This document shows positions 49,285-63,970 of a stretch of DNA of 64,000 nucleotides, one piece after another. Source of the stretch: Dehalococcoidia bacterium (GTDB lineage: Bacteria > Chloroflexota > Dehalococcoidia > Dehalococcoidales > UBA3254). The stretch lies in the NCBI GenBank assembly GCA_025361145.1, contig JANYAV010000012.1, positions 14,830 to 78,829 of the forward strand. The letters run 5' to 3'. Both the position numbers and the translations under genes were made by a program. The notes beneath the pieces were generated by a model. That model saw only the letters and a program-made list of their open reading frames with translations. It was not told where the DNA came from and ran no database searches. The first letter of the stretch is position 1. Each line of letters starts with the position of its first letter.

Positions 49285-51033
49285 TTATATCGGCAGACTA
49301 AAACCGAAGGTCGAACCCTTTCCTTCCTGGCTTTGTACCCAAATTTGGCCGTTATGGGCCTGCACGATATGTTTGGCGATAGCCAGTCCCAGTCCGCTGC
49401 CCTGAGAGGAACGGGATTTATCAGCTTTGAAGAAACGCTCAAAGATATGAGGCAGATCTTCAGTTGAAATACCGATGCCGTTATCATTTACTTCAATAAT
49501 GGCAGTATTGTCTTTCATTCCGGTTTTAATCACGATACGCCCGTTATGTGGGGTAAATTTAATAGCGTTATACAGAATATTATTTAAAGCCTGCTGGATG
49601 CGTTCAATATCCATTTTTACTGCAGGTAGATCGGGCTGTAGTTCTGTTAAAAGCGTGATTTGCTTTCTCTCTGCTTGTGGCAGAAAGCGATTGACTGTCT
49701 CCTGAACAAACAGATTTAAATTCACCGGTTGGAATTTGAAACTGGTTTTGCCCGTCTCAATACGTGACAATTCAATCAGTTCATTGATCATCTGGGTCAG
49801 GCTGTCCACTTCTAAATTAACTTTTTCCAGAAAGTCAGCAGCTACGACCTTATCCTCAATCGCTCCGTCCTGCAGCGTCTCTACCACCGCTTTGATTGAA
49901 GCTAAAGGTGTCCTTAGTTCATGTGAAATGTTGCCGACAAATTCGCGGCGCATAGTCTGTAAACTGCGCATTTCGGTTAAATCCTGGAATAACAGTAAAG
50001 CGCCGGTGATTTGTTCAGTCCGGAAAGCCACCACAATCACCCGCAAGAATTTCCCATTATTGAGATCAATAAAAGTATTTTGATTTTGCTGGGTGGTCAA
50101 ACAGTTTGTAAGGGACTGGTCGATTTCATAGTTCAAAGTAGCTTCAATGATATGTTTGCCAGTCATTTCTGCGGTATTGAAATTGAAGAGATTTTGTGCT
50201 GCCGGATTAGCCAGCATGATTAAACCGTGGGAATCGGTCATGATCATTCCATCGGTCATGGTAGCCAGAATAGTGGTCAGTTTATTTTTCTCAGAAGAGA
50301 GAATTGTCATGTTGTCTTTCAGATGGTCGGCCATGCGATTAAAAGCCCGCCCCAAACTGCCCAATTCATCATGCGAGGTTACGGTAATCTGCGTATCAAG
50401 ATCCCCGGCAGCGATTCTGACGGCTGCCCGGGTGAGCTGTCGGATGGGCTGGGTGAGCCTGCGGGTAATAAAGAAGGTGGCCAAAATCACCAGCAGAGCG
50501 GCTAAGGCAATTGCCCATGAGATCAGAGCGATGCTGCTGCCGACAGATTGGTTAACCGCAGTAAGGGGCAAGGCTACCCTGGCGACGCCCAAAACCACCG
50601 CCTGGCTTTTGATAGGCACCGCAATATAGAGCATGTTTTGTCCGGTAGTAACGCTTAGTCGTGTGTCTTCTCCGACCTTAGAATTAAGGGCCTGTTGAAC
50701 TTCCGGCCGGCTGCTGTGGTTTTCCATCACAGCCGGGTTTTCCCAGCTATCGCCTAAGACGGTGCCATCGGCCCTTATTACGGTTACCCTGGCCTGTATT
50801 TCGGCACCGGTACTTTTAGTCAGGGCATCAATTTGGCTGTAGCCTGCCGCATCGGTTATATCCGGTTGTACCGTATCGGCTACCAATCTGGCTTCATTGG
50901 TCAAATAGGTGCGCAGGTGTTCCAACTGTAGATCGCGAACTGATGAGACCATAAAAAAGCCCAGGATACTGAGGCTGGCTACTACTACCAGTATTATCGG
51001 CAGGGTTATCTTCCAGTAGATACTGCGTGTCAT
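49285..51033 (-). CDS. phoR: PhoR-type sensor histidine kinase (TM-extracytoplasmic-TM-HAMP-PAS-HisKA-HATPase)
   Basis: 582 aa. FVGNISHELRTPL H-box, and N/G1/G2 boxes (NAIKFT, DNGIGI, GSGLGLAI). Confidence 0.85.
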   Translation of the reverse strand: MTRSIYWKITLPIILVVVASLSILGFFMVSSVRDLQLEHLRTYLTNEARLVADTVQPDITDAAGYSQIDALTKSTGAEIQARVTVIRADGTVLGDSWENPAVMENHSSRPEVQQALNSKVGEDTRLSVTTGQNMLYIAVPIKSQAVVLGVARVALPLTAVNQSVGSSIALISWAIALAALLVILATFFITRRLTQPIRQLTRAAVRIAAGDLDTQITVTSHDELGSLGRAFNRMADHLKDNMTILSSEKNKLTTILATMTDGMIMTDSHGLIMLANPAAQNLFNFNTAEMTGKHIIEATLNYEIDQSLTNCLTTQQNQNTFIDLNNGKFLRVIVVAFRTEQITGALLLFQDLTEMRSLQTMRREFVGNISHELRTPLASIKAVVETLQDGAIEDKVVAADFLEKVNLEVDSLTQMINELIELSRIETGKTSFKFQPVNLNLFVQETVNRFLPQAERKQITLLTELQPDLPAVKMDIERIQQALNNILYNAIKFTPHNGRIVIKTGMKDNTAIIEVNDNGIGISTEDLPHIFERFFKADKSRSSQGSGLGLAIAKHIVQAHNGQIWVQSQEGKGSTFGFSLPI

Positions 51034-51034
51034 G

Positions 51035-51742
51035 TTATTCCTCGAACTTGTAGCCTACCCCGCGTATCGTGACGAGATGGGCGGGTTTTTCAGGATTAGA
51101 TTCAATTTTCTCACGCAGCCAGCGCATGTGCACATCCACGGTGCGGGTGTCTCCCGCGAAGTCATAACCCCAGACTTTTTCTAGCAGGGTGTCGCGGTTG
51201 AAGACCTGGCTCTTGTTTTTGAGTAAAAATACCAGCAGATCGAACTCTTTGGGATTTAGATTAACAGGTTTTGCCGCCACGTTTACCAAATGGCGAGATA
51301 CATCGATTTCAATATCACCTGCACTAATACTGGTTGAAGCCTCTTTAGTTTCAACAACGGCGGTTTCATTGATCATTTTGATGCGGCGCAGCATGGCCCT
51401 GACTCTGGCCATGAGTTCTCTCATGCTGAAGGGTTTAGTCATATAATCATCCGCGCCGACTTCCAGTCCGAGGATCTTGTCAATCTCGTCGGCGCGAGCG
51501 GTAAGCATCAGGATAGGGACTGACATTTCTTTGCGCAATATGCGGCAAACTTCCAATCCATCCAGTTTGGGGAGCATAAGATCCAGTACAATTATTTCAG
51601 GTTTTTCTCTGCGTGCTTTTTCCACGGCATCCAGGCCGTCAGCACAGGCAACGACCTTATAACCTTCTTTGTTAAGGTTATATTCCAGCATGGCACGTAG
51701 AGTTCCATCGTCTTCTACTACTAGAATCTTATTGCCGGCCAA
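51035..51742 (-). CDS. phoB: OmpR/PhoB-family response regulator
   Basis: 235 aa. Receiver domain (DDGTL...VLDLMLPKLDG) with a winged-helix output domain (TVDVHMRWLREKI...RGVGYKF). Confidence 0.88.
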   Translation of the reverse strand: MAGNKILVVEDDGTLRAMLEYNLNKEGYKVVACADGLDAVEKARREKPEIIVLDLMLPKLDGLEVCRILRKEMSVPILMLTARADEIDKILGLEVGADDYMTKPFSMRELMARVRAMLRRIKMINETAVVETKEASTSISAGDIEIDVSRHLVNVAAKPVNLNPKEFDLLVFLLKNKSQVFNRDTLLEKVWGYDFAGDTRTVDVHMRWLREKIESNPEKPAHLVTIRGVGYKFEE

Positions 51743-55648: not shown

Positions 55649-56659
55649 ATGAAACTTCAAAACATAGCCCTAAAGTTAATAGCTTTCATGTTTTGCGCCT
55701 GGCTGCCCATCAACGCTGTCCTGCCCCCAGCAGATGACAGGGCAACCCCCGGTTACATCGCTGAAATTGGTGGAACTACCGCTGTTCTGAATCAGGAAAC
55801 TCTGCGCTGGGATCTACTCCAAATTGAAGCCCAGAAAGGCTGGTCTATTGTTACCGGTGGAAAAGATGTGCTGGTGGCAGTTCTGGATACCGGTATCGAT
55901 GATACCCATGCAGCCCTCGCTGGCAAGGTGGAAGGCAGAGTCAATTTCACTAACAGCCCAGCCGCAGACGTGCAAGGACACGGCACTTTTATTGCCGGTA
56001 TTATCGCCGCCGGCGCAGAGAATCCGGGCTGCCCCGGCCTGGCCTACAATGCCAAATTACTGGACGTTAAAGTCGCTGAGGACAATGGCAGCACGGATGC
56101 TAAAAAGGTAGCCCAAGGGATTATCTGGGCAGCTAACCACGGTGCTGAAGTGATTAATATAAGCATCGTAATCAATCAAGAATACCCTCTATTAGAGTAC
56201 GCGGTAGATTATGCCTGGGAAAAGGGTTGCGTAATTGTAGCCTCGGCCGGTAACAGGGCTACCACAACGCCCGTCTATCCCGCGGCCTATGCCAATGTAA
56301 TCGCGGTAGCCGCTTCCGATAAAAATGATGATCTGGCCCGCTGGTCCAATACCGGAAAGTGGGTGGATGTGGATGCCCCCGGCACCGAGATTTATTCAAC
56401 TCTTCCCGGCAATAAATATGGTACGAAATCCGGTTCTTCTTTCTCAGCCGCGCTGGTTTCCGGTGAAGCTGCCCTCTTATTTACCCGGGCCATAGATGTT
56501 GATAATGACGGCCTGCTCAACAACGAGATCAGCACCAATATTCTGAATAATTGCGATGTGATCCAGGGGCTGGAAAACACCCGCAAGCGAATCAACGTTT
56601 ATGACGCCGCCAAAGCGGCCGATATCATCCGCGAAATGCTGACGGTGACGGGGGGGTAG
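55649..56659 (+). CDS. Secreted subtilisin-like serine peptidase (S8)
   Basis: Signal peptide, then the D/H/S triad contexts VAVLDTGID, HGTFIAGIIAA and GSSFSAALVSG. Confidence 0.88.
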   Translation: MKLQNIALKLIAFMFCAWLPINAVLPPADDRATPGYIAEIGGTTAVLNQETLRWDLLQIEAQKGWSIVTGGKDVLVAVLDTGIDDTHAALAGKVEGRVNFTNSPAADVQGHGTFIAGIIAAGAENPGCPGLAYNAKLLDVKVAEDNGSTDAKKVAQGIIWAANHGAEVINISIVINQEYPLLEYAVDYAWEKGCVIVASAGNRATTTPVYPAAYANVIAVAASDKNDDLARWSNTGKWVDVDAPGTEIYSTLPGNKYGTKSGSSFSAALVSGEAALLFTRAIDVDNDGLLNNEISTNILNNCDVIQGLENTRKRINVYDAAKAADIIREMLTVTGG

Positions 56660-56681: not shown

Positions 56682-57190
56682 CACCCTGAGATGCTTCGCT
56701 ACGCTCCAGCATGACAACCTTACGCACTTCAGTATGACCGAAGGTTATTGGTGTCATTCTGGAGTCCCGATTTTATCGGGACGAAGAATCTGGTGGGGAG
56801 GGGAAAATAGGAATAGCAGTTATATGATATAATAGCCAGCAAATGCAAGAATATTATGTCAATATCATGACCAATAAATCAGGAACTTTATACACGGGAA
56901 TAACCAATAATTTGGAACGCCGTGTTTATGAACACAAGAACAAGCTGATTGAAGGTTTTACAAAACGATACAATATTACTCAACTGGTATATTTTGCTTC
57001 AGGTAATGATGTTACTGCTGCTATCACCATGGAAAAGCGGATTAAGGGAATGTTGCGAAGTAAAAAGATAGAGTTGATTAAAACAATTAACCCTCATTTC
57101 CAGGATTTAAGTGAGAGTTGGTTTGATTGCGGTAATAAAGAAGGAGTTTGACCTCACCCTGAGATCCTTCACTTCGTTCCAGGATGACAA
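56682..57190 (+). mobile_element. Putative selfish GIY-YIG cassette: a GIY-YIG gene bracketed by 36-bp direct repeats plus a hairpin
   Basis: DR1 (56682-56717) is caccctgagatgcttcgctacgctccagcatgacaa and DR2 (57155-57190) is caccctgagatccttcacttcgttccaggatgacaa, with 31 of 36 positions identical. A hairpin gtcccgat-ttt-atcgggac lies at 56764-56782. Confidence 0.4.
56843..57151 (+). CDS. GIY-YIG (URI-domain, COG2827-like) nuclease family protein
   Basis: 102 aa. YYVNIMTNKSGTLYTGITNNLERRVYEHK is the GIY-(X10)-YTG ... R ... E pattern. Confidence 0.85.
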   Translation: MQEYYVNIMTNKSGTLYTGITNNLERRVYEHKNKLIEGFTKRYNITQLVYFASGNDVTAAITMEKRIKGMLRSKKIELIKTINPHFQDLSESWFDCGNKEGV

Positions 57191-57221: not shown

Positions 57222-57250
57222 AAAGCCCGCTGGATTTTTCAGCGGGCTTT
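57222..57250. terminator. Bidirectional hairpin between the convergent GIY-YIG gene and the last fibre-operon gene
   Basis: 10-bp stem aaagcccgct/agcgggcttt, flanked by A and T runs. Confidence 0.7.
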
Positions 57251-57253
57251 GTT

Positions 57254-58834
57254 TTATTCCTTGTCTGTTGTCTGAGTAGCTTCAGCTTCCTGCAGCTGAC
57301 GTCTGCTGCGGAAAAGCGAAATAATCATTGTGGAGATTCCGGCGGCGATGCACAGCAGCCACCAGTAGTTAGTCTCCGAGACGTCAGGTATGATCCTGGG
57401 ATCTACCCACAACTCGTCGCCCAAAGGACCGGCGGTTACGGTATAGATGCCGCTGGTCCCGGGCATTAAAATCATATCCACTTCTGTGCTTTGTCCCGGA
57501 TTAAGGTGCACGGACTGGCTTTTTTGGATCTTGCCGTCTACCTTGATGACCACCACATATTCACCCGGCAGGCCGCCTTTGTTGATGACTCTGACTCGAA
57601 CGTCTGCACTTTGGCCCACCAGGATTCTTTGAGGCCTGACAGTCAGTCTCTGCAGCATAATATTGGCCGGCGGCTTGCCCGCGCCGGATTTCGCCAGTAC
57701 CACAAACAGCGAGAAGTGGTCTACCTCCGCCGCTACCTCCGGGCCTTCCGCGATAAAGCCGGCAGGGGGTGAAAGTTCTGTCCAGCCGTCCTGGTAGCTG
57801 TAGTAGAAAGCGGCCAGATCGTCTACTGTTTCAGGCAGAAGTTTATCGTTATATTTAATGATCAGGGTAGAAGGCCTATCCAGCTTCACACCGGTAATAT
57901 AGCCGTTAGTGACGCCGTTAATATCGTAATTCGGGCTGACGGGTATCCAGCCGTCCGGATAAGGGGGCACTTCAGAAACGTCAGGGTTGGTTACCCTGAT
58001 CTCCCAGGGAACGGTCTCTCCCACCTTGCTCAGGTCTACAGGGTACTGGCGGTTTTCATTAGAAAGGTGCACCTGGGTGCCCTGTAAGATATCCAGTGTA
58101 AAACTGCCGTCAGGCACAGTGGCTTTAAGACCGCCGATCACAATACCGTCAGCGGTTACCCTGGACTGGTCGCCGGCCTGAGGCATTACCAGGCTAATAA
58201 ACCGGTCTCCGCCGCCAGGCGGATTGGGAGTAGAAGGGGGCGTGGGTATGGGGTTAGGTTCAGGTTCAGGAGTTGTGGGTGGAGCACCCGTACCGCTTAA
58301 CTGGTAATTGACATCAAAAGAGATGCCGTCTCCCTGAACGATATTGTCGGTGTTAGAAGTAAAGTGGCTGCCGCCGCTAAGGGGCAAATACCAACGCCAG
58401 GTGAGTGTGACCGTGTCCCCCGGGTTTATAGCGGGGACAGTTAAGGTTTTAGGGCTGGAGGCGCTCATGGGAAACCCGGAAATAGGTCCCGGCATGGGAA
58501 AATTAGCGGCTGTCAGGCCGGAGCCGGAAACGCTGAATTGCAGATTATCGGCTAAATCGGCGGTTCCATCCTTACCGGCGGTATTGACGAATGAATCCAG
58601 CCAGATGAGCAGGGAGGCAGATTCAGTGCTGTTATTACTGACTTTTACTACCTTGGAGTCACTCTGGCCGGGGTAGATATTATTAAAGACCAGACTGGTA
58701 TTAGTTCCCCCCAGCGCATCGGTCAAACTAATGTTGATGCTGGCGGCGGAAACCGGGACTGAAGTGGGCAAGCCGAAGAGCAGGATCACTCCTGCCATCA
58801 TAATGGCTATCGTTCTTAACATCAGTGTTTTCAT
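57254..58834 (-). CDS. Membrane-anchored surface protein: signal peptide, TasA/camelysin-like domain, Pro-rich linker, unknown domain, CARDB-like Ig domain, C-terminal TM anchor
   Basis: - 526 aa with an AxA-type signal (SVPVSA/AS).
- N-terminal domain ends NIVQGDGISFDVNYQL, like the terminal strand of the neighbouring TasA-like proteins.
- Linker is PPTTPEPEPNPIPTPPSTPNPP.
- CARDB-like segment is VRVRVINKGGLPGEY...NPGQSTEV.
- C-terminal helix WWLLCIAAGISTMIISLF is followed by RSRR. Confidence 0.6.
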   Translation of the reverse strand: MKTLMLRTIAIMMAGVILLFGLPTSVPVSAASINISLTDALGGTNTSLVFNNIYPGQSDSKVVKVSNNSTESASLLIWLDSFVNTAGKDGTADLADNLQFSVSGSGLTAANFPMPGPISGFPMSASSPKTLTVPAINPGDTVTLTWRWYLPLSGGSHFTSNTDNIVQGDGISFDVNYQLSGTGAPPTTPEPEPNPIPTPPSTPNPPGGGDRFISLVMPQAGDQSRVTADGIVIGGLKATVPDGSFTLDILQGTQVHLSNENRQYPVDLSKVGETVPWEIRVTNPDVSEVPPYPDGWIPVSPNYDINGVTNGYITGVKLDRPSTLIIKYNDKLLPETVDDLAAFYYSYQDGWTELSPPAGFIAEGPEVAAEVDHFSLFVVLAKSGAGKPPANIMLQRLTVRPQRILVGQSADVRVRVINKGGLPGEYVVVIKVDGKIQKSQSVHLNPGQSTEVDMILMPGTSGIYTVTAGPLGDELWVDPRIIPDVSETNYWWLLCIAAGISTMIISLFRSRRQLQEAEATQTTDKE

Positions 58835-58877
58835 TGATCAATTTCACGACTAACTTTAAATCATTTACGACCCAATG

Positions 58878-59990
58878 TTATTCTTCAGTTCCGATAACGT
58901 AAGAGACGTAACGCCAGACCTTGATATAATCCAGGTAAGCCTTGGGCAGGCTGGTAGTGGTGTTAAAGAAAAAGTTCTGATTGGTAGGAGTAATGGCATT
59001 GGAAAAAGGAAAGGTCGAGGATCCCCCCGATGTTAACAGCTGGGCGTCATTCACAAATACTTCGTAGGTATCGGCGGTGGTATTGACGTTGGCGAATTGA
59101 ATATCATACAGATTGGTGGTTGAATAAGAATAAGCCGGTGAAAAACTGTTAATGGTCCCTGAGTTGGTAGTATAGTATTTAAGGTAGCTGTCGCTGTAGA
59201 AGCTAATTCTCGGACCCGCCGTGTTGTTAGCGCCGTTGGTGTTATTGGACAGCATCATATTGTAAACCAGATTGGTTTGCATAGGTTTGGATAGAAATTC
59301 TATATTGTAAGGCTGGGTCGGAAAAGCAAAGGCATAATTTCCGCCGTAGATATTATTATTGGTATAATCCTTATTGATGTACATGCTGTGGCTATTATGC
59401 TGCCCCGTGACGCTTGAATATTGTAACTGGCCTCTGGTTCCGCTGATTTCAGTCCATCCCGTTGGCACACTCTGGTTTTGATTGGGGTTACTGGTCCAGC
59501 TGGTCTCAAAGTCCTGATAATTCAGGAATAGAGATGACACGCTGCTTTCACTACCGGTGGTAGCGGCCGAAGTATTGCCGTAATACATATATATGATGGT
59601 TGGTGTTCCGCTGGCTTCGATAATAGGGACATTCACCCAGATTATAGCGCTGGTGGAAGCAGTGTAGGATTCTATCCAGTATGTCAGAGCTGTTGTCCCG
59701 TTTGAGCTGGTAAAACGGACGTCTGAGAAATCTGTATTCATATGGTCTGTCACGAAAGGGACATTCCTTAGTTTAAGGGGATAGGCGCTGGTTATAGCTG
59801 TTGCAGGATTGGTAATGACTATTTGTTTCCGCCATTTCCAATGCACGTCAAACCAGTCCGTACGGACGGTGACCACATTACCGGATACCTTCTCGGTATC
59901 GCTGAAATAGGCCACCGATTTACCTATCAGACCGCCGACCAGCATGACCAATACTATAATACTAAAGATGATCCAGTATTTTTTATTCAT
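58878..59990 (-). CDS. DUF2341/LamG(ConA)-like secreted protein carrying a SipW-cognate-type signal peptide
   Basis: - 370 aa with signal ...GKSVAYFSDTEKVSGNVVTV.
- DUF2341-like core: WKWRKQIVITN...DFSDVRFTS..GT.LTYWIE...IWVNVP...IYMYYGN.
- Asn/Thr/Tyr-rich second jelly-roll-like half.
- 4-nt overlap with the upstream peptidase gene. Confidence 0.65.
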   Translation of the reverse strand: MNKKYWIIFSIIVLVMLVGGLIGKSVAYFSDTEKVSGNVVTVRTDWFDVHWKWRKQIVITNPATAITSAYPLKLRNVPFVTDHMNTDFSDVRFTSSNGTTALTYWIESYTASTSAIIWVNVPIIEASGTPTIIYMYYGNTSAATTGSESSVSSLFLNYQDFETSWTSNPNQNQSVPTGWTEISGTRGQLQYSSVTGQHNSHSMYINKDYTNNNIYGGNYAFAFPTQPYNIEFLSKPMQTNLVYNMMLSNNTNGANNTAGPRISFYSDSYLKYYTTNSGTINSFSPAYSYSTTNLYDIQFANVNTTADTYEVFVNDAQLLTSGGSSTFPFSNAITPTNQNFFFNTTTSLPKAYLDYIKVWRYVSYVIGTEE

Positions 59991-60514
59991 AATTTGGCCT
60001 CTTTGACCTTTTTATCGGCAGCCAGCCGGGATATTTCTGAACGCAGATTTCTGACGCAGAGGTAGATGATATACAGGGTAGGGACCACCAGACCGGCTAT
60101 CAGACCCACTTCGGTTTTTAAAAAAGAGATAAAATAACCCACATAATCAGCATGAAAGCTTACTTTGCCAACCACATTGGCCGCTGGAATAGCCATCTCA
60201 TCAGTTTGAGAGACTGCGTCTCCCCGGGTTACAAAGCTTAACTGCTTTGCCTGATTTATCTTCACGATGCGGTGGCAGACATTATACTGGCTTTCGAAAG
60301 GCGGCTTGAAAATAATAATATCGCCGACTCTCAGGTCGGCTGGATTCACTCTGTTGGCCACTACCATGGTGCCTACGTGCAGCGTAGGCGTCATGCTCCC
60401 CGAACCGACGTTGTTGATAGACAGTCCCAGGCGGGGGGAAATGTAAACCAGCGAGGAGACCAGGACCAGGAAGAGCACTATTATTAATAAAAGCGTATCC
60501 CAAAGTTTGTTCAC
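59987..60514 (-). CDS. sipW: Signal peptidase I, archaeal/ER (S26B, SipW/Sec11) type, copy 2
   Basis: 175 aa with N- and C-terminal TM helices. GSGSMTPTL (Ser) and VCHRIV (His) motifs and a RGDAVSQTD box. It lacks the Lys/GDNxxxSxDSR motifs of bacterial LepB. Confidence 0.8.
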   Translation of the reverse strand: MNKLWDTLLLIIVLFLVLVSSLVYISPRLGLSINNVGSGSMTPTLHVGTMVVANRVNPADLRVGDIIIFKPPFESQYNVCHRIVKINQAKQLSFVTRGDAVSQTDEMAIPAANVVGKVSFHADYVGYFISFLKTEVGLIAGLVVPTLYIIYLCVRNLRSEISRLAADKKVKEAKL

Positions 60515-60540
60515 TCTGCTTTCTTTATTATCCTTATATC

Positions 60541-61242
60541 CTACTGCTGGTGAATTGTATAATATAAGTCGATAGAAAGTCCATTGCCCATGAAGGTACC
60601 CGCCAGACTGGCCGGCACCGGGTCAATAAGGCTAAGCTGCATCGTCATCTTGATTATTCCCGTGGCGGGGTTGGTAGAATCTGTGGCGGTCAAAGGGCCA
60701 ATTTTGGTTGCTTCCCATTCGCCGTTTCCGGCTATACCGGTTGTATTGGTGTCATGGGTCAGGTCATATAAATCATAATAGCCTTTTGAACCGTGATCTG
60801 TCAGATAGATGGTGGGATCCAGATTGCCGTCTGTAGTCGTGTTTAATAAATTGACGTTTCTGCCGTAGTTTAGTTGAACCAGTTTGAATAACTTCAAGGT
60901 ATCATCCAGGCTGCCGTTAGTGCCGGTATTGCCGGTGCCGCTGATACTGAAAGCAAAATCTATCTTGGTGGCAGCTACTGTGCCTTCGTCTCTGACCCAC
61001 ATTTGGGCGATTGGTGAGGCATAGCCGGCTTTAAAATTAGCGTCTGTAAACCAGCTGGAAAAACCGTCATATTGAACGTACCCGCTTCCCGGATTGATGA
61101 CTGTCTTCAGGTCCATCCTGCCCGCCGTCACCAGGTTATCTGCGGACCGTTCACTATCTTGCAAATACGCCCAGATACCCCCGGCGGTCAGGCTGAGAAT
61201 AATTACAAAAGCTAGAGTTAATCCCACTATTTTCTTAATCAT
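60541..61242 (-). CDS. TasA/camelysin-like (peptidase M73-fold) secreted protein with SipW-cognate signal, paralogue 3
   Basis: 233 aa. MIKKIVGLTLAFVIILSLTAGGIWAYLQDSERSADNLVTAGRMDL. Terminal strand GLSIDLYYTIHQQ. Confidence 0.7.
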   Translation of the reverse strand: MIKKIVGLTLAFVIILSLTAGGIWAYLQDSERSADNLVTAGRMDLKTVINPGSGYVQYDGFSSWFTDANFKAGYASPIAQMWVRDEGTVAATKIDFAFSISGTGNTGTNGSLDDTLKLFKLVQLNYGRNVNLLNTTTDGNLDPTIYLTDHGSKGYYDLYDLTHDTNTTGIAGNGEWEATKIGPLTATDSTNPATGIIKMTMQLSLIDPVPASLAGTFMGNGLSIDLYYTIHQQ

Positions 61243-61261
61243 TTCTTTAGCTTCGAGTTTC

Positions 61262-61320
61262 GAGCTATGAGCTTCCAGTTACCAATTTGTTTCTTATTTG
61301 TAATTTCTTATCTGGTTTTC
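61262..61320 (-). repeat. A-rich oligo-repeat (sense = minus strand) upstream of paralogue 3
   Basis: The minus strand reads gaaaaccagataagaaattacaaataagaaacaaattgg. It has the same AAATAAG/ACAAATA unit family as 643-712 and 54543-54676, and again lies on the mRNA-sense strand. Confidence 0.55.
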
Positions 61321-61387
61321 TATCGAAAGGGTCTGATGTTTCTCATCCGGCCCTTTCGATAGGGGAGCAGGGCTTGCCCTGCTCCCC
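61320..61387 (-). terminator. Two tandem strong hairpins downstream of the 241-aa subunit gene (attenuator or mRNA-stabilising structure)
   Basis: Hairpin A has a 12-bp stem ctatcgaaaggg/ccctttcgatag (61320-61362). Hairpin B has an 11-bp GC-rich stem ggggagcaggg-cttg-ccctgctcccc (61362-61387). Confidence 0.6.
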
Positions 61388-61405
61388 CGGAATTACTAAG
61401 AGCTA

Positions 61406-62131
61406 TTATTCTCCAGCTTGAACTAGAGCGAAGGACAGATCGAAGGTAATGTCATCATCCTGGGCTTTGTTATCGGGATCAATAGTAAAGTGGCTGCCGG
61501 CATTCTTCGGGAAATAATAATCTACATAGAAGATACCAACACCGCTACCGCCAGCAACATTTCCAACTAATAGGGTGTCAGTTATCCCAGGAACCATAGA
61601 ATTGGCAGTTGCGTATGCACTATCAGGAGCAATACCACCATAAGTGACTGCTTCTCCGCCAGCATAAGCGAATTTAGCTCCCGCGCTGGTGATGTAATAA
61701 TCACCGGTGTTCCAGGTTCCTGAAGTATCGGCATCAACCCAGATCGCTAATTTCAACAAGCCACCCAGTTCTCCGTCAGTTCCGCTATTGGTTCCAGGAT
61801 CTCCGGCTTTATCTTCAACCCCACCGGAAGTCCAGGTATTTTCATGATTGACCAGGTTGAGTGTTTTAAAACGAAAATCACCGTTTATATTACCGCCGTT
61901 AGTGAGGGTCCAGTTACCGGCATGCCCTTTATCACCGGGTTTCATTTTAGTGGCTGAACCGATACTGATGGGGAGTAAGGCGTTAGCACCACCGACTGTG
62001 AGGCTAAGTTTCCCGGCCGTGATGGTGTTGCCGGTTGAGGTAACAACATCATTGAAGTAGGCCCAGGTGCCTGTGCCGAGCATCGCGATGACCGCGATCA
62101 GGGCCACTGTGAGTCCAATAATCTTTTTCAT
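61406..62131 (-). CDS. TasA/camelysin-like secreted protein with SipW-cognate signal, paralogue 2 (candidate major subunit)
   Basis: 241 aa. GTGTWAYFNDVVTSTGNTITAGKLSL compares with B. subtilis TasA GGGTWAAFNDIKSKDATFASGTLDL. It also has a KMKPGDKG strand and the terminal strand AQDDDITFDLSFALVQ. Confidence 0.75.
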   Translation of the reverse strand: MKKIIGLTVALIAVIAMLGTGTWAYFNDVVTSTGNTITAGKLSLTVGGANALLPISIGSATKMKPGDKGHAGNWTLTNGGNINGDFRFKTLNLVNHENTWTSGGVEDKAGDPGTNSGTDGELGGLLKLAIWVDADTSGTWNTGDYYITSAGAKFAYAGGEAVTYGGIAPDSAYATANSMVPGITDTLLVGNVAGGSGVGIFYVDYYFPKNAGSHFTIDPDNKAQDDDITFDLSFALVQAGE

Positions 62132-62172
62132 CGTTTTCTCCTATTTTATTTTTCTTTTTTATATCTTATCAA

Positions 62173-62201
62173 GAGGCCGGCACTTGCCATGTCCCGGTCT
62201 C
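62173..62201 (-). terminator. Hairpin downstream of paralogue 1
   Basis: Stem gaggccgg/ccggtctc (7 of 8 bp) with a 13-nt loop. On the minus strand it is followed by an A-rich spacer and then the AGGAGAA SD sequence of the next gene. Confidence 0.4.
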
Positions 62202-62214
62202 GATTTGCCTTCTA

Positions 62215-62982
62215 TTAGTCCTGATGCAGAGAGTACAGGAAATCTGTGTATAATTTCAAGCCCTGCACCTTGTTATTAACGGTATGGGTGGTGTCATCGG
62301 GCAGGTAATAAGTGAAGTGCATGTAGATGGTGGAGTTGGCCGTCAAATAAGTAGTTCCGCCCGCTGAACCGTTGGGAATCGGTACGCTAGTCCAGGTAGT
62401 TTCACCGGTGGTATTGGGCCGGCTGGCATAGGTGGGTGAAGAAGCAGCACCGATATAACCCGTGGTGGTAGTGACCCAGGGAGCGAAGCGCCCGGTTAAA
62501 CTGGGAGAAGCGCCCAGATCGGTAGTGGTCCCGCCCGGATTTAACAGGATGCTGTAAGCGGGAGGAGTTGCCGAAGCGGTGGTGCTTAACCAGATCGCTA
62601 CTTTGGAGGCAGTTCCCAGGTCTCCTACGGTTACTACTGTGGTCCCGTCAGCAGCATGTAATTTACCGGTGGGAAAGCCCGCTGCATCCTGGCCGGCGTT
62701 AGTAATTTTAATATCCAGCTTCCCGGAGATGTTGGTGGCCCCATCATTTTTCAAGGAAATGGATTGATGGGCTGCTCCCGACCCGTTGGCGGCTGTGGGT
62801 ACGAAGGCTGAGTCAGTCAGGAAAGTATAGGGTGTGGTGCCGCCGATAGTCAGATCCAGCGTTCCGGCTGTCACATAGTTGTCTGCTGATTTTTCGGTAT
62901 CGGAGAAGTAAGCGAAGGATCCGACACCAGCTACGGCGATAATGATGATGGCCGCGATGGCTAAACCTAATATTTTCTTCAT
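62215..62982 (-). CDS. TasA/camelysin-like secreted protein with SipW-cognate signal, paralogue 1
   Basis: 255 aa. MKKILGLAIAAIIIIAVAGVGSFAYFSDTEKSADNYVTAGTLDLTIGG. Thr/Gly/Ser-rich. Terminal strand VQGLKLYTDFLYSLHQD. Confidence 0.72.
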   Translation of the reverse strand: MKKILGLAIAAIIIIAVAGVGSFAYFSDTEKSADNYVTAGTLDLTIGGTTPYTFLTDSAFVPTAANGSGAAHQSISLKNDGATNISGKLDIKITNAGQDAAGFPTGKLHAADGTTVVTVGDLGTASKVAIWLSTTASATPPAYSILLNPGGTTTDLGASPSLTGRFAPWVTTTTGYIGAASSPTYASRPNTTGETTWTSVPIPNGSAGGTTYLTANSTIYMHFTYYLPDDTTHTVNNKVQGLKLYTDFLYSLHQD

Positions 62983-63052
62983 TTAATGTTCCCCCTGTAT
63001 TGGAATTTATATAATGGTAAGCGGGTTTTCCCGCGAATACTCAAATTACCAT

Positions 63053-63832
63053 CTATGAAAGATCGGCTAAGATTTTTCTCATCTCGTTACGGATGTTATC
63101 ATTAACCTGTTTATTGCTAAAAACCTGGGCAGGCACTTCTTTTGCCGCTTTTGCGGCCTTGACTTCAGCAACCACAGGTTTAATCACTTCAGGCTGGGCT
63201 GCCTTTTTGACCGCTGGCGTAACCGGTTCAGGACTAACCGGTTTGGACTGGCGCTTGTTCATCACGCCACTGTCAGCCCCCACGGCTACAGTTTGCATAA
63301 CCGGGCTAATACCAGCGGCGCTTTTCTTTTTATCATCTTTAAAGGCTTCTTTAAGAATATCTTTGATCAGGAACCCGACCAGGATCAGAGTAGGAATGAT
63401 CACGATTAAAAACCAGCCTTTCTTGGAGTTGGTCAGGTTCGTAATCCAGCCGATGGCCGGAACCTTGAAAAGATAGGACCCCTGAACGGATGAGATTGCG
63501 GTGGTGCCTGAATCAGCACTTTTATTGGCGTCACCTTTGGTGGTGATCTGTCCGTTTTCTATGCTAACGGCACGGTGAGTGACTATTTTGCCTTGATTGT
63601 CGAAGGTAATAATCTCCCCGGGTTGAATCTCATGCACGGGACCGGTGATGATGATATCTCCGGCGCTGATGCCGGGTTTCATACTGTCACTTCGTACGAT
63701 ATACATACCATAACCGGGCACCAGTTTTACAAAAGCTACGCCCAGTATAGCCAGGCCGATAATTACCGTTATAGTCCAGGACACTATCTGGCCGATCTTC
63801 TTGGTTCTTATTCGTTTAGAGGCTGCGAACAT
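63053..63832 (-). CDS. sipW: Signal peptidase I, archaeal/ER (S26B, SipW/Sec11) type, copy 1, with a Lys/Ala/Pro/Val-rich C-terminal extension
   Basis: 259 aa. N-terminal TM helix, SDSMKPGI (Ser), VTHRAV (His), a KGDANKSADS box, and a second TM helix. The tail is about 90 aa (PVSPEPVTPAVKKAAQPEVIKPVVAEVKAAKAAKE). Confidence 0.78.
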   Translation of the reverse strand: MFAASKRIRTKKIGQIVSWTITVIIGLAILGVAFVKLVPGYGMYIVRSDSMKPGISAGDIIITGPVHEIQPGEIITFDNQGKIVTHRAVSIENGQITTKGDANKSADSGTTAISSVQGSYLFKVPAIGWITNLTNSKKGWFLIVIIPTLILVGFLIKDILKEAFKDDKKKSAAGISPVMQTVAVGADSGVMNKRQSKPVSPEPVTPAVKKAAQPEVIKPVVAEVKAAKAAKEVPAQVFSNKQVNDNIRNEMRKILADLS

Positions 63833-63882: not shown

Positions 63883-63970
63883 ATTATAGGCTTTGCAGGT
63901 AACAAACGGATTAAGGAACGCCCTGAATTGGTTACAATGGGTTACAATTTGGGTTACAGCGGGTTACAAT
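63883..63970 (-). promoter_or_regulatory. Putative fibre-operon control region: a consensus -10 plus four phased direct repeats
   Basis: A minus-strand TATAAT lies at 63883-63888, 51 nt upstream of the ATG, with no good -35. GGTTACA(A/G)(T/C) units start at 63930, 63940, 63952 and 63962, giving 10-12 bp spacing. Confidence 0.5.

Follow-up and report, generated by a model that had tools for sequence, protein, structure and literature searches.

TasA fibres are a main model for the assembly of a biofilm matrix, and that model rests on Bacillus, with its one dedicated peptidase and its cell-wall anchor. Within the B. subtilis operon tapA-sipW-tasA and the sipW-tasA/calY operon of B. cereus, a dedicated peptidase of the archaeal/endoplasmic reticulum (ER) type is encoded together with TasA-family subunits, and the Bacillus precursors carry SipW-cognate signal peptides with Phe at P2'. 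According to one report, sites with an aromatic P2' are cut poorly by LepB and SipW is the dedicated enzyme of TasA (PMC10269814), so that dedicated peptidases would be needed for such precursors. Furthermore, TapA donates its own N-terminus to TasA (PMC10151520), and earlier work reported TasA homologues from Chloroflexota (PMC9245690). Here we describe a locus that resembles the Bacillus operons both in its linkage of such a peptidase to TasA-family subunits and in its signal peptides, and that encodes two peptidases, SP1 and SP2. It lies in a 64,000-nucleotide (nt) stretch of contig JANYAV010000012.1 from a Dehalococcoidia bacterium (hereafter the window, with positions counted from its first letter), in which seven consecutive minus-strand open reading frames (ORFs) occupy positions 57254-63832: SP1, three TasA-family subunits (T1 to T3), SP2, a DUF2341 accessory protein and a membrane-anchored protein with a CARDB domain (Table 1). 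The genomes nearest to the locus are those of uncultured Dehalococcoidales, and metagenome contigs hold exact copies of it. We judge it somewhat more probable than the opposite that this region is a seven-gene operon of an uncultured Dehalococcoidales bacterium, encoding a TasA-type extracellular fibre that assembles by donor-strand exchange.

An original prediction, made by reading the letters of the window, had proposed two divergent archaeal/ER-type signal peptidases in one operon, and both ORFs were indeed found on the minus strand where it had placed them, one of them opening the operon ahead of the three subunit genes. Both proteins passed TIGR02228, the profile of archaeal-type signal peptidase I (77.4 bits for SP1 and 99.8 bits for SP2, cut-off 51.85), and both failed TIGR02227, the profile of the bacterial LepB type (22 and 35.6 bits, respectively, cut-off 47). 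Both peptidases could be aligned to human SEC11A/C at its SGSM serine, its (I/V)xHR histidine and its GD box, giving a catalytic set of S50 (63683-63685), H86 (63575-63577), D101 and D107 in SP1, and of S40 (60395-60397), H81 (60272-60274), D99 and D105 in SP2, whose N-terminus, read from the GTG start, aligned with those of its orthologues. The Ser and His context foreseen for both copies was thus recovered, and so was their lack of LepB character, the alignment placing His and not Lys at the general-base position of SP1 and SP2. The proposed KGD-N-x-x-x-D box stood in part: a GD-x5-D spacing of the two aspartates (D101/D107 in SP1, D99/D105 in SP2) fits both enzymes, whereas the box of SP2 reads RGDAVSQTD and does not contain 'KGD-N'. 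Judged by these profiles and alignments, SP1 and SP2 are Sec11/SipW-type (S26B-like) Ser-His peptidases and not LepB-type ones. Both also fell below the cut-off of NF046067, the Bacillus SipW equivalog (76.6 bits for SP1 and 82 bits for SP2, cut-off 190), and on this measure they are not orthologues of Bacillus SipW, though they would be SipW-like in function.

The Ser, His and two Asp residues were 100% conserved in 31 SP1-clade and 70 SP2-clade sequences, and the clearest difference between the clades adjoins the nucleophile, with S-E/D-S-M in SP1 and S-G-S-M in SP2. Both SP1 and SP2 are apparently active peptidases, and the full conservation of these residues in each clade led us to reject a pseudo-peptidase reading. 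In hydropathy plots each peptidase showed two transmembrane helices (at residues ~12-43 and 136-162 in SP1) and positively charged N- and C-termini, an arrangement that would keep both termini in the cytoplasm and expose the catalytic domain on the outer side of the membrane. The core of the AlphaFold2 (AF2) model of SP1 reached a predicted local distance difference test (pLDDT) score of about 80-89, and in Foldseek the best PDB matches of this model were S. pyogenes SipA (4n31) and human SEC11A (7p2p, 28% identity), followed in rank by LexA/UmuD and LepB-type enzymes.

The two peptidases had been called a duplication, a term that proved misleading. SP1 and SP2 are 22% identical; identity averages 0.49 among SP1-clade and 0.46 among SP2-clade sequences, against 0.28 from one clade to the other, and in a neighbour-joining tree rooted on SEC11 the SP1 clade was recovered in 166/200 bootstraps, the SP2 clade in 102/200, and the two clades as sisters in 1/200. 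As the tree is a simple one built on a short alignment, only a qualitative conclusion is claimed from it. Since identity is ~22-28% and the clades are not sisters, a recent tandem duplication was rejected, and SP1 and SP2 appear, in qualitative terms, to be old paralogues of separate lineages.

T1 and T2 both passed PF12389 (28.6 and 33.8 bits), in each case with a match over the N-terminus only, and both passed TIGR04088, the model of SipW-cognate signal peptides (36.2 and 40.8 bits), as did the DUF2341 protein (22.1 bits). T3 scored 19.6 bits with PF12389, under the cut-off of 22.5, and 147 bits with subunit profile A3. A profile of 22 subunits, taken from the window and from related loci, matched B. 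subtilis TasA (5OF1/8AUR, residues 4-203, E=2.5e-8), and the match spans the whole mature domain, including the C-terminal N-x-x-QGD…F…Q motif. By this comparison T1-T3 are homologous to TasA over the mature domain, and because the N-terminal segment and the N-x-x-QGD…F…Q motif are both conserved, their fibre would be expected to assemble by donor-strand exchange. The subunits could further be assigned with two class hidden Markov models (HMMs), one of 'major' (SP1-adjacent) and one of 'minor' (SP2-adjacent) subunits: the mature part of T2 matched only the major model (E=1.5e-19), that of T3 only the minor model (E=2e-7), and T1 scored 93.9 bits as major and 65.2 bits as minor, a weaker major assignment than that of T2.

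The cleavage sites predicted in the window (arrow, cleaved bond) are GSFA↓YFSD in T1, GTWA↓YFND in T2, GIWA↓YLQD in T3 and KSVA↓YFSD in the DUF2341 protein. All four have a small P1 residue and Asp at P4', while at P2' T3 has Leu and the other three have Phe, so that the AYF-x-D site once ascribed to all four substrates fits three and fails for the third subunit, which has AYLQD. Among the related loci, the site logos read GGG-T-W-A↓Y-F-S-D for major and G-I-G-T-W-A↓Y-F-S-D for minor subunits, and T-G-V-T-(R/T/S)-S↓x-F-x-D-D-E for the accessory class, in which P1 is Ser in 37/44 sequences; P1 is Ala in all subunits, and the subunit logos have Trp at P2. L011 and L042 are examples of loci in which the sites of the accessory protein and of the subunits are clearly unlike.

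The DUF2341 protein (PF10102, 69.2 bits) consists of a SipW-type signal peptide, a donor-strand-like segment (…KSVA↓YFSDTEKVSGN) and the DUF2341 domain, in this order, with no TasA core, and in hhalign it aligned to the TasA subunit profile at columns 10-42 only. In the anchored protein the signal site is of the ordinary AxA kind (VSA↓AS), without an aromatic P2', and the TasA-like core aligned from subunit column 42 on, past the donor strand (hhalign A3 vs A4: probability 99.3%, E=7.8e-21); a Pro-rich linker, a middle domain, CARDB (30 bits), a C-terminal transmembrane helix and a basic tail follow. The DUF2341 protein would be able to donate a strand and unable to accept one, which makes it a candidate TapA-like initiator or cap, and the anchored protein would be able to accept a strand and unable to donate one, which makes it a candidate base of the fibre.

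Word-index homologue searches yielded few relatives (20 of SP1, 28 of SP2 and 4 of the DUF2341 protein), and SP2 orthologues surfaced only via locus scans. A genome scan with the SP1 profile recovered 21 loci, almost all from Dehalococcoidales or Chloroflexota, with between one and three TasA-family genes after SP1. Eight of these have an SP2-clade gene further down the operon (an SP1-T...-SP2 layout), and in seven with intact downstream sequence SP1 comes without SP2; a TasA-family gene comes directly after SP1 in every Dehalococcoidales/Chloroflexota locus in which SP1 and its downstream sequence are intact. A metagenome scan with the SP2 profile recovered 80 loci, and a TasA-family gene, typically encoding 190-198 amino acids (aa), directly precedes SP2 in 62/62 with enough upstream sequence, the gap being exactly 10 nt in 40 of the 62 (in the window, 26 nt separate the end of T3 from the start of SP2). 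Where at least 2.3 kb upstream of SP2 could be read (27 metagenome loci), SP1 was found in 14, another peptidase in 2 and neither in 11. The ATGA overlap between SP2 and the DUF2341 gene, predicted at 59987-59990, is real, and the same 4-nt overlap of the SP2 stop with the next gene was found in 33/45 related loci. The product of that next gene ranges from 190 to >2,600 aa and has an initial transmembrane segment and a donor-strand-like motif, in several cases followed by DUF2341. Altogether, the SP1/SP2 pair is kept across many loci with only 40-60% protein identity, and these comparisons support both the pairing and the coupling as conserved features.

As an observation apart, the SP1-only loci L013 (11939-12808), L015 (11432-14424) and L017 (5443-6318) encode another accessory class, with a GTS(A/S/G)↓(F/Y)FSDTE site and then Cys-rich sequence, in the place otherwise taken by the minor subunit, SP2 and the accessory gene.

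The reading that we favour, with a confidence slightly above even, is that the operon consists of two joined SipW-TasA modules plus an anchor, and that its two peptidases share the work. Module A would comprise SP1 and then the major subunits T1 and T2, and module B the minor subunit T3, SP2 and then a signal-peptide/donor-strand protein fused to a DUF2341 domain, while the last gene would contribute a membrane-anchored protein with a TasA core and no donor strand. SP1 and SP2 would cleave the pre-proteins between a small residue and the (Y/F)-F-x-D motif behind it, and this cleavage would free the N-terminal strand for insertion into the next protomer, as in TasA-type subunits. SP1 may act mainly on the bulk subunits, and SP2, being made in fixed proportion to the minor subunit and the TapA-like accessory protein, may mainly serve these two, in which case the two would be specialised less by the cleavage motif than by proximity and joint expression with their substrates. 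The anchored protein, accepting a strand, would form the base, and the DUF2341 protein, donating one, would serve as initiator or cap. As the linkage is conserved and the accessory-class site is distinct in most loci, a division of labour between SP1 and SP2 is plausible.

The best-surviving rival is redundancy or dosage, whereby both peptidases cut every SipW-type precursor and the two copies stem from the joining of modules or serve capacity. We consider it unlikely, yet it is a serious rival, because the window sites are near-identical and single-peptidase loci exist. The sequence T-W-A↓Y-F-S-D, from P3 to P4', is shared almost unchanged by major and minor subunits alike, and the four window sites are similar to one another, the S-V-A↓Y-F-S-D of the accessory protein included, which comes near to a subunit site. 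The SP1-only loci L013, L015 and L017 manage several subunits and accessory proteins, and in 11/27 loci, all of them with several subunit genes, the stretch of at least 2.3 kb upstream of SP2 contains no SP1; neither enzyme is therefore obviously tied to one substrate set. Set against redundancy are the retention of the pair at 40-60% protein identity with catalytic residues kept in both clades, the near-fixed spacing of SP2 (10 nt before it and a 4-nt overlap after it), which is unexpected for a dispensable spare, and the accessory class, which usually has a different P1 and P2. The substrate specialisation suggested by the original prediction thus fared unevenly: SP2 is locked to the minor subunit as well as to the accessory gene, whose cleavage site is distinct in most loci, but the sites of the window itself are alike and single-peptidase loci are found.

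The near-identity of the window sites and the single-peptidase loci weigh against two joined modules with shared jobs, and so do several further points. That the genes form an operon is deduced from their common strand, the short gaps between them and a single terminator; a scan for promoters, with 17 matches vs 10.5 ± 3 expected, was not informative, and its use as support for internal promoters was rejected on these same numbers. The SP2 clade had a support of only 51% in the simple neighbour-joining tree, the AF2 model of the DUF2341 protein (from a 4-sequence alignment) had a pLDDT of 38 and was left out of the fold search, and the base and cap roles are read from homology and from domain presence or absence only.

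The remaining alternatives turn in part on the cytoplasmic tail of SP1. The extension of about 90 aa, rich in Lys, Ala, Pro and Val, that had been noticed after the second transmembrane helix was confirmed as 91 aa, of which K, A, P and V make up 53%, compared to 27% in the remainder of SP1, with a net charge of +7. Equally sound was the statement that it has no counterpart in SipW, as the Bacillus SipW model matches SP1 residues 15-163 only. The pLDDT was below 50 for residues 169-239 and about 80 for the helix at 240-258 (63056-63112), and residues 169-239 are predicted to be a disordered linker that leads to this terminal helix. The amphipathicity of the helix was not significant, with 8% of shuffles reaching the observed value, and the idea of a significantly amphipathic terminal helix was rejected on this basis. 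Only the closest relatives (P0002-P0007 and L003) have long tails, and L021 has a shorter one of ~65 aa; the tails vary in length and sequence save for two shared motifs: a juxtamembrane KDI(L/V)KEAF motif common to nearly all SP1, and a terminal helix-like motif kept among the tailed close relatives. Most SP1 orthologues are 155-204 aa long and tailless, which led us to reject the tail as a conserved family feature. Going by these comparisons and the structural model, the SP1 tail is real, cytoplasmic and lineage-specific.

Two related ORFs differ from SP1 in other ways. The SP1-clade ORF at 9332-10516 of L005 is extended at its N-terminus by ~230 aa that contain five zinc-ribbon-like CxxC…CxxC repeats, another cytoplasmic add-on, and at 10135-10866 of L022 an SP1-like catalytic domain lies in frame with a TasA-type N-terminus (GTSWAYFNND); this ORF may represent a genuine fusion, but also the decay of a locus or an artefact of assembly.

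That one copy has a non-proteolytic role, additional or alternative, with SP2 as a SipA/LepA-like assembly chaperone or SP1 signalling through its tail in the manner reported for B. subtilis SipW, strikes us as improbable. SipW has been called bifunctional (PMC13082335), the terminal helix of the SP1 tail is confidently predicted and conserved in close relatives, and other SP1 members carry other cytoplasmic extensions, such as the zinc-ribbon-like repeats of L005. SipA, however, is defined by lost catalytic residues, with Asp and Gly at the catalytic positions (PMC4049620), whereas SP1 and SP2 show no such loss, their four catalytic residues being invariant in both clades, which gives no support to a purely non-catalytic role of one copy. 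Moreover, most SP1 orthologues have no tail, so that any function of the tail would be lineage-specific, and the amphipathicity of its helix, reached by 8% of shuffles, lends no further support. That SP1 is a general secretory signal peptidase lying beside the fibre genes, with only SP2 dedicated to them, we regard as very improbable: wall-less Dehalococcoidia have archaeal-like envelopes and the gap from SP1 to T1 is an ordinary intergenic one without coupling, but a TasA-family gene directly follows SP1 in every intact Dehalococcoidales/Chloroflexota locus recovered, and the ordinary AxA site of the anchored protein fits a separate housekeeping enzyme.

The favoured reading of two joined modules with shared jobs can be taken further, to a polar TasA-type pilus in Dehalococcoidales with an acceptor-only base, a shaft of major and minor subunits, a donor-only cap and two peptidases with separate jobs. 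We offer this picture tentatively and consider it doubtful as a whole. If it is true, the cap or initiator would be a strand donor fused to variable adhesin-like domains (190 to >2,600 aa), SP1 would be the bulk enzyme, and SP2 would release the minor subunit and the initiator or cap, controlling where and when a fibre starts and stops, in parallel to sortases, which are likewise split into housekeeping and pilus-specific enzymes; through its variable cytoplasmic extensions SP1 would then link processing to an intracellular signal.

More broadly, the locus gives a wall-less, uncultured and environmentally widespread lineage what would be a fuller pilus-like gene set, with two peptidase lineages, two subunit classes, a donor-only TapA-like protein and an acceptor-only anchor, and with strikingly conserved intergenic spacing. 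It yields predictions on how donor-strand fibres are started, ended and anchored, and raises the question of whether peptidases of the Sec11/SipW type can be specialised for substrates; the numerous natural variants of SP1, SP2 and their substrates could be used to map specificity in a family related to the eukaryotic signal peptidase. We find the system-level predictions more interesting, namely a membrane base that only accepts strands, a variable cap that only donates them and a second, coupled peptidase.

As for the regulation of the locus, four direct TGTAACC boxes lie about 100 nt upstream of the SP1 start with a period of 10-12 nt. Paired matches number 3 in the window vs 0 expected, and paired boxes were found upstream of the first operon gene in 10 related loci whose proteins share only 40-60% identity; the boxes are thus a candidate binding site for an OmpR/PhoB-type response regulator. 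In eight genome loci, genes for an OmpR-type regulator and for a histidine kinase of CHASE4-HAMP-PAS architecture are located directly upstream of SP1. The window has only a weaker-matching regulator/kinase pair, at 49285-51742 on the minus strand, about 5.5 kb past the operon end. Related loci have, between the response regulator and SP1, a conserved ORF of ~140 aa that matches nothing in Pfam and is absent from the window. Just past the 64000 end of the window, as seen in L001 (9400-9700), three copies of a ~30-nt repeat containing CTTCACAAGGTCGG(G/T)CC sit between an upstream PKD-domain gene and the operon promoter region. At the other end, the hairpin directly after the last gene is the probable end of the operon. 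Past this terminator, on the plus strand of the window, are a secreted subtilisin-like ORF (55649-56659), judged by eye from its translation, and a small ORF (56843-57151); the L001/L002 counterpart of the ORF beyond the terminator has a GIY-YIG Pfam match.

Table 1. Features of the proposed fibre operon and of related loci (positions refer to the window unless a locus is named).
Feature	Position	Strand	Basis or remark
SP1 peptidase, 259 aa	63053..63832	-	TIGR02228; aligns to SEC11C
SP1 tail, residues 169-259	63056..63328	-	composition, AF2
T1 TasA-family subunit, 255 aa	62215..62982	-	PF12389, TIGR04088
T2 TasA-family subunit, 241 aa	61406..62131	-	PF12389, TIGR04088
T3 TasA-family subunit, 233 aa	60541..61242	-	subunit profile A3, 'minor' class HMM
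SP2 peptidase, 175 aa, GTG start	59987..60514	-	TIGR02228; aligns to SEC11A/C
ATGA overlap, SP2 stop / DUF2341 gene start	59987..59990	-	codon check; translational coupling
DUF2341 accessory protein, 370 aa	58878..59990	-	PF10102, TIGR04088
Membrane-anchored protein with CARDB, 526 aa	57254..58834	-	hhalign to subunit profile, CARDB
G+C-rich hairpin, then T run	57222..57250	-	11-13 pairs, 7 G-C; terminator on both strands
Four direct TGTAACC boxes	63930..63968	-	candidate OmpR-type operator
Paired TGTAACC boxes, related loci	L004 9425-9453, L026 427-444, L031 3976-3993, L042 2936-2953, L052 1598-1615, L054 415-432, L069 255-283, L070 3756-3773, L065 1737-1754, L090 112-129		
Kinase/regulator pair, related loci	L004 6357-9295, L006 6355-9230, L010 6357-9244, L011 6901-9790, L014 6463-9344, L007 5176-7681, L012 407-2147		
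ORF of ~140 aa, related loci	L004 9554-9970, L006 9492-9932, L010 9458-9892, L014 9524-9910, L018 670-1098		

Single SipW-TasA operons are well known. In a literature search of limited coverage we found no paper that joins SipW with Dehalococcoidia or describes a two-peptidase TasA operon, and nothing relevant on two peptidases, DUF2341 and camelysin together; the two-peptidase variant is absent from the literature searched. Compared with the Bacillus operons, which have one peptidase, the locus has two of different lineages, both below the SipW equivalog cut-off, as well as three subunit paralogues in two classes and an extra membrane-anchored protein with a TasA core and no donor strand, and its host, unlike theirs, is a member of the Dehalococcoidales. 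Its DUF2341 protein resembles TapA in having a donor-strand-like N-terminus and no TasA core, while the accessory domain is DUF2341 here and the Ig-like TapA domain in Bacillus. The overlap between SP2 and the accessory gene likewise recalls the stop-start overlap of tapA and sipW in B. subtilis (PMC10151520), with the order reversed here, the peptidase coming first.

With eukaryotic Sec11 (SEC11A/C) and archaeal signal peptidase I (MEROPS S26B), SP1 and SP2 share the aligned SxSM serine, xHR histidine and GD-x5-D aspartates, and they differ from these enzymes as stand-alone bacterial proteins with two transmembrane helices that are dedicated to an operon and not general, SP1 having in addition its 91-aa tail. 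S. pyogenes SipA/LepA provides another parallel, that of a signal-peptidase fold within a fibre or pilus operon that has shaft, tip and base components (PMC4049620); SipA, however, is without catalytic residues, belongs to the Ser-Lys branch and works with sortases, whereas the Ser/His/Asp/Asp set is kept here and no sortase was seen in the operon. Finally, the Pyrobaculum AbpA/AbpB bundling pili and other TasA homologues from outside the Firmicutes resemble the present system in their TasA-fold subunits, donor strands and TapA-like partner, but no dedicated peptidase was found near the archaeal bundling-pilus operon (PMC9245690), whereas the Dehalococcoidales locus has two.

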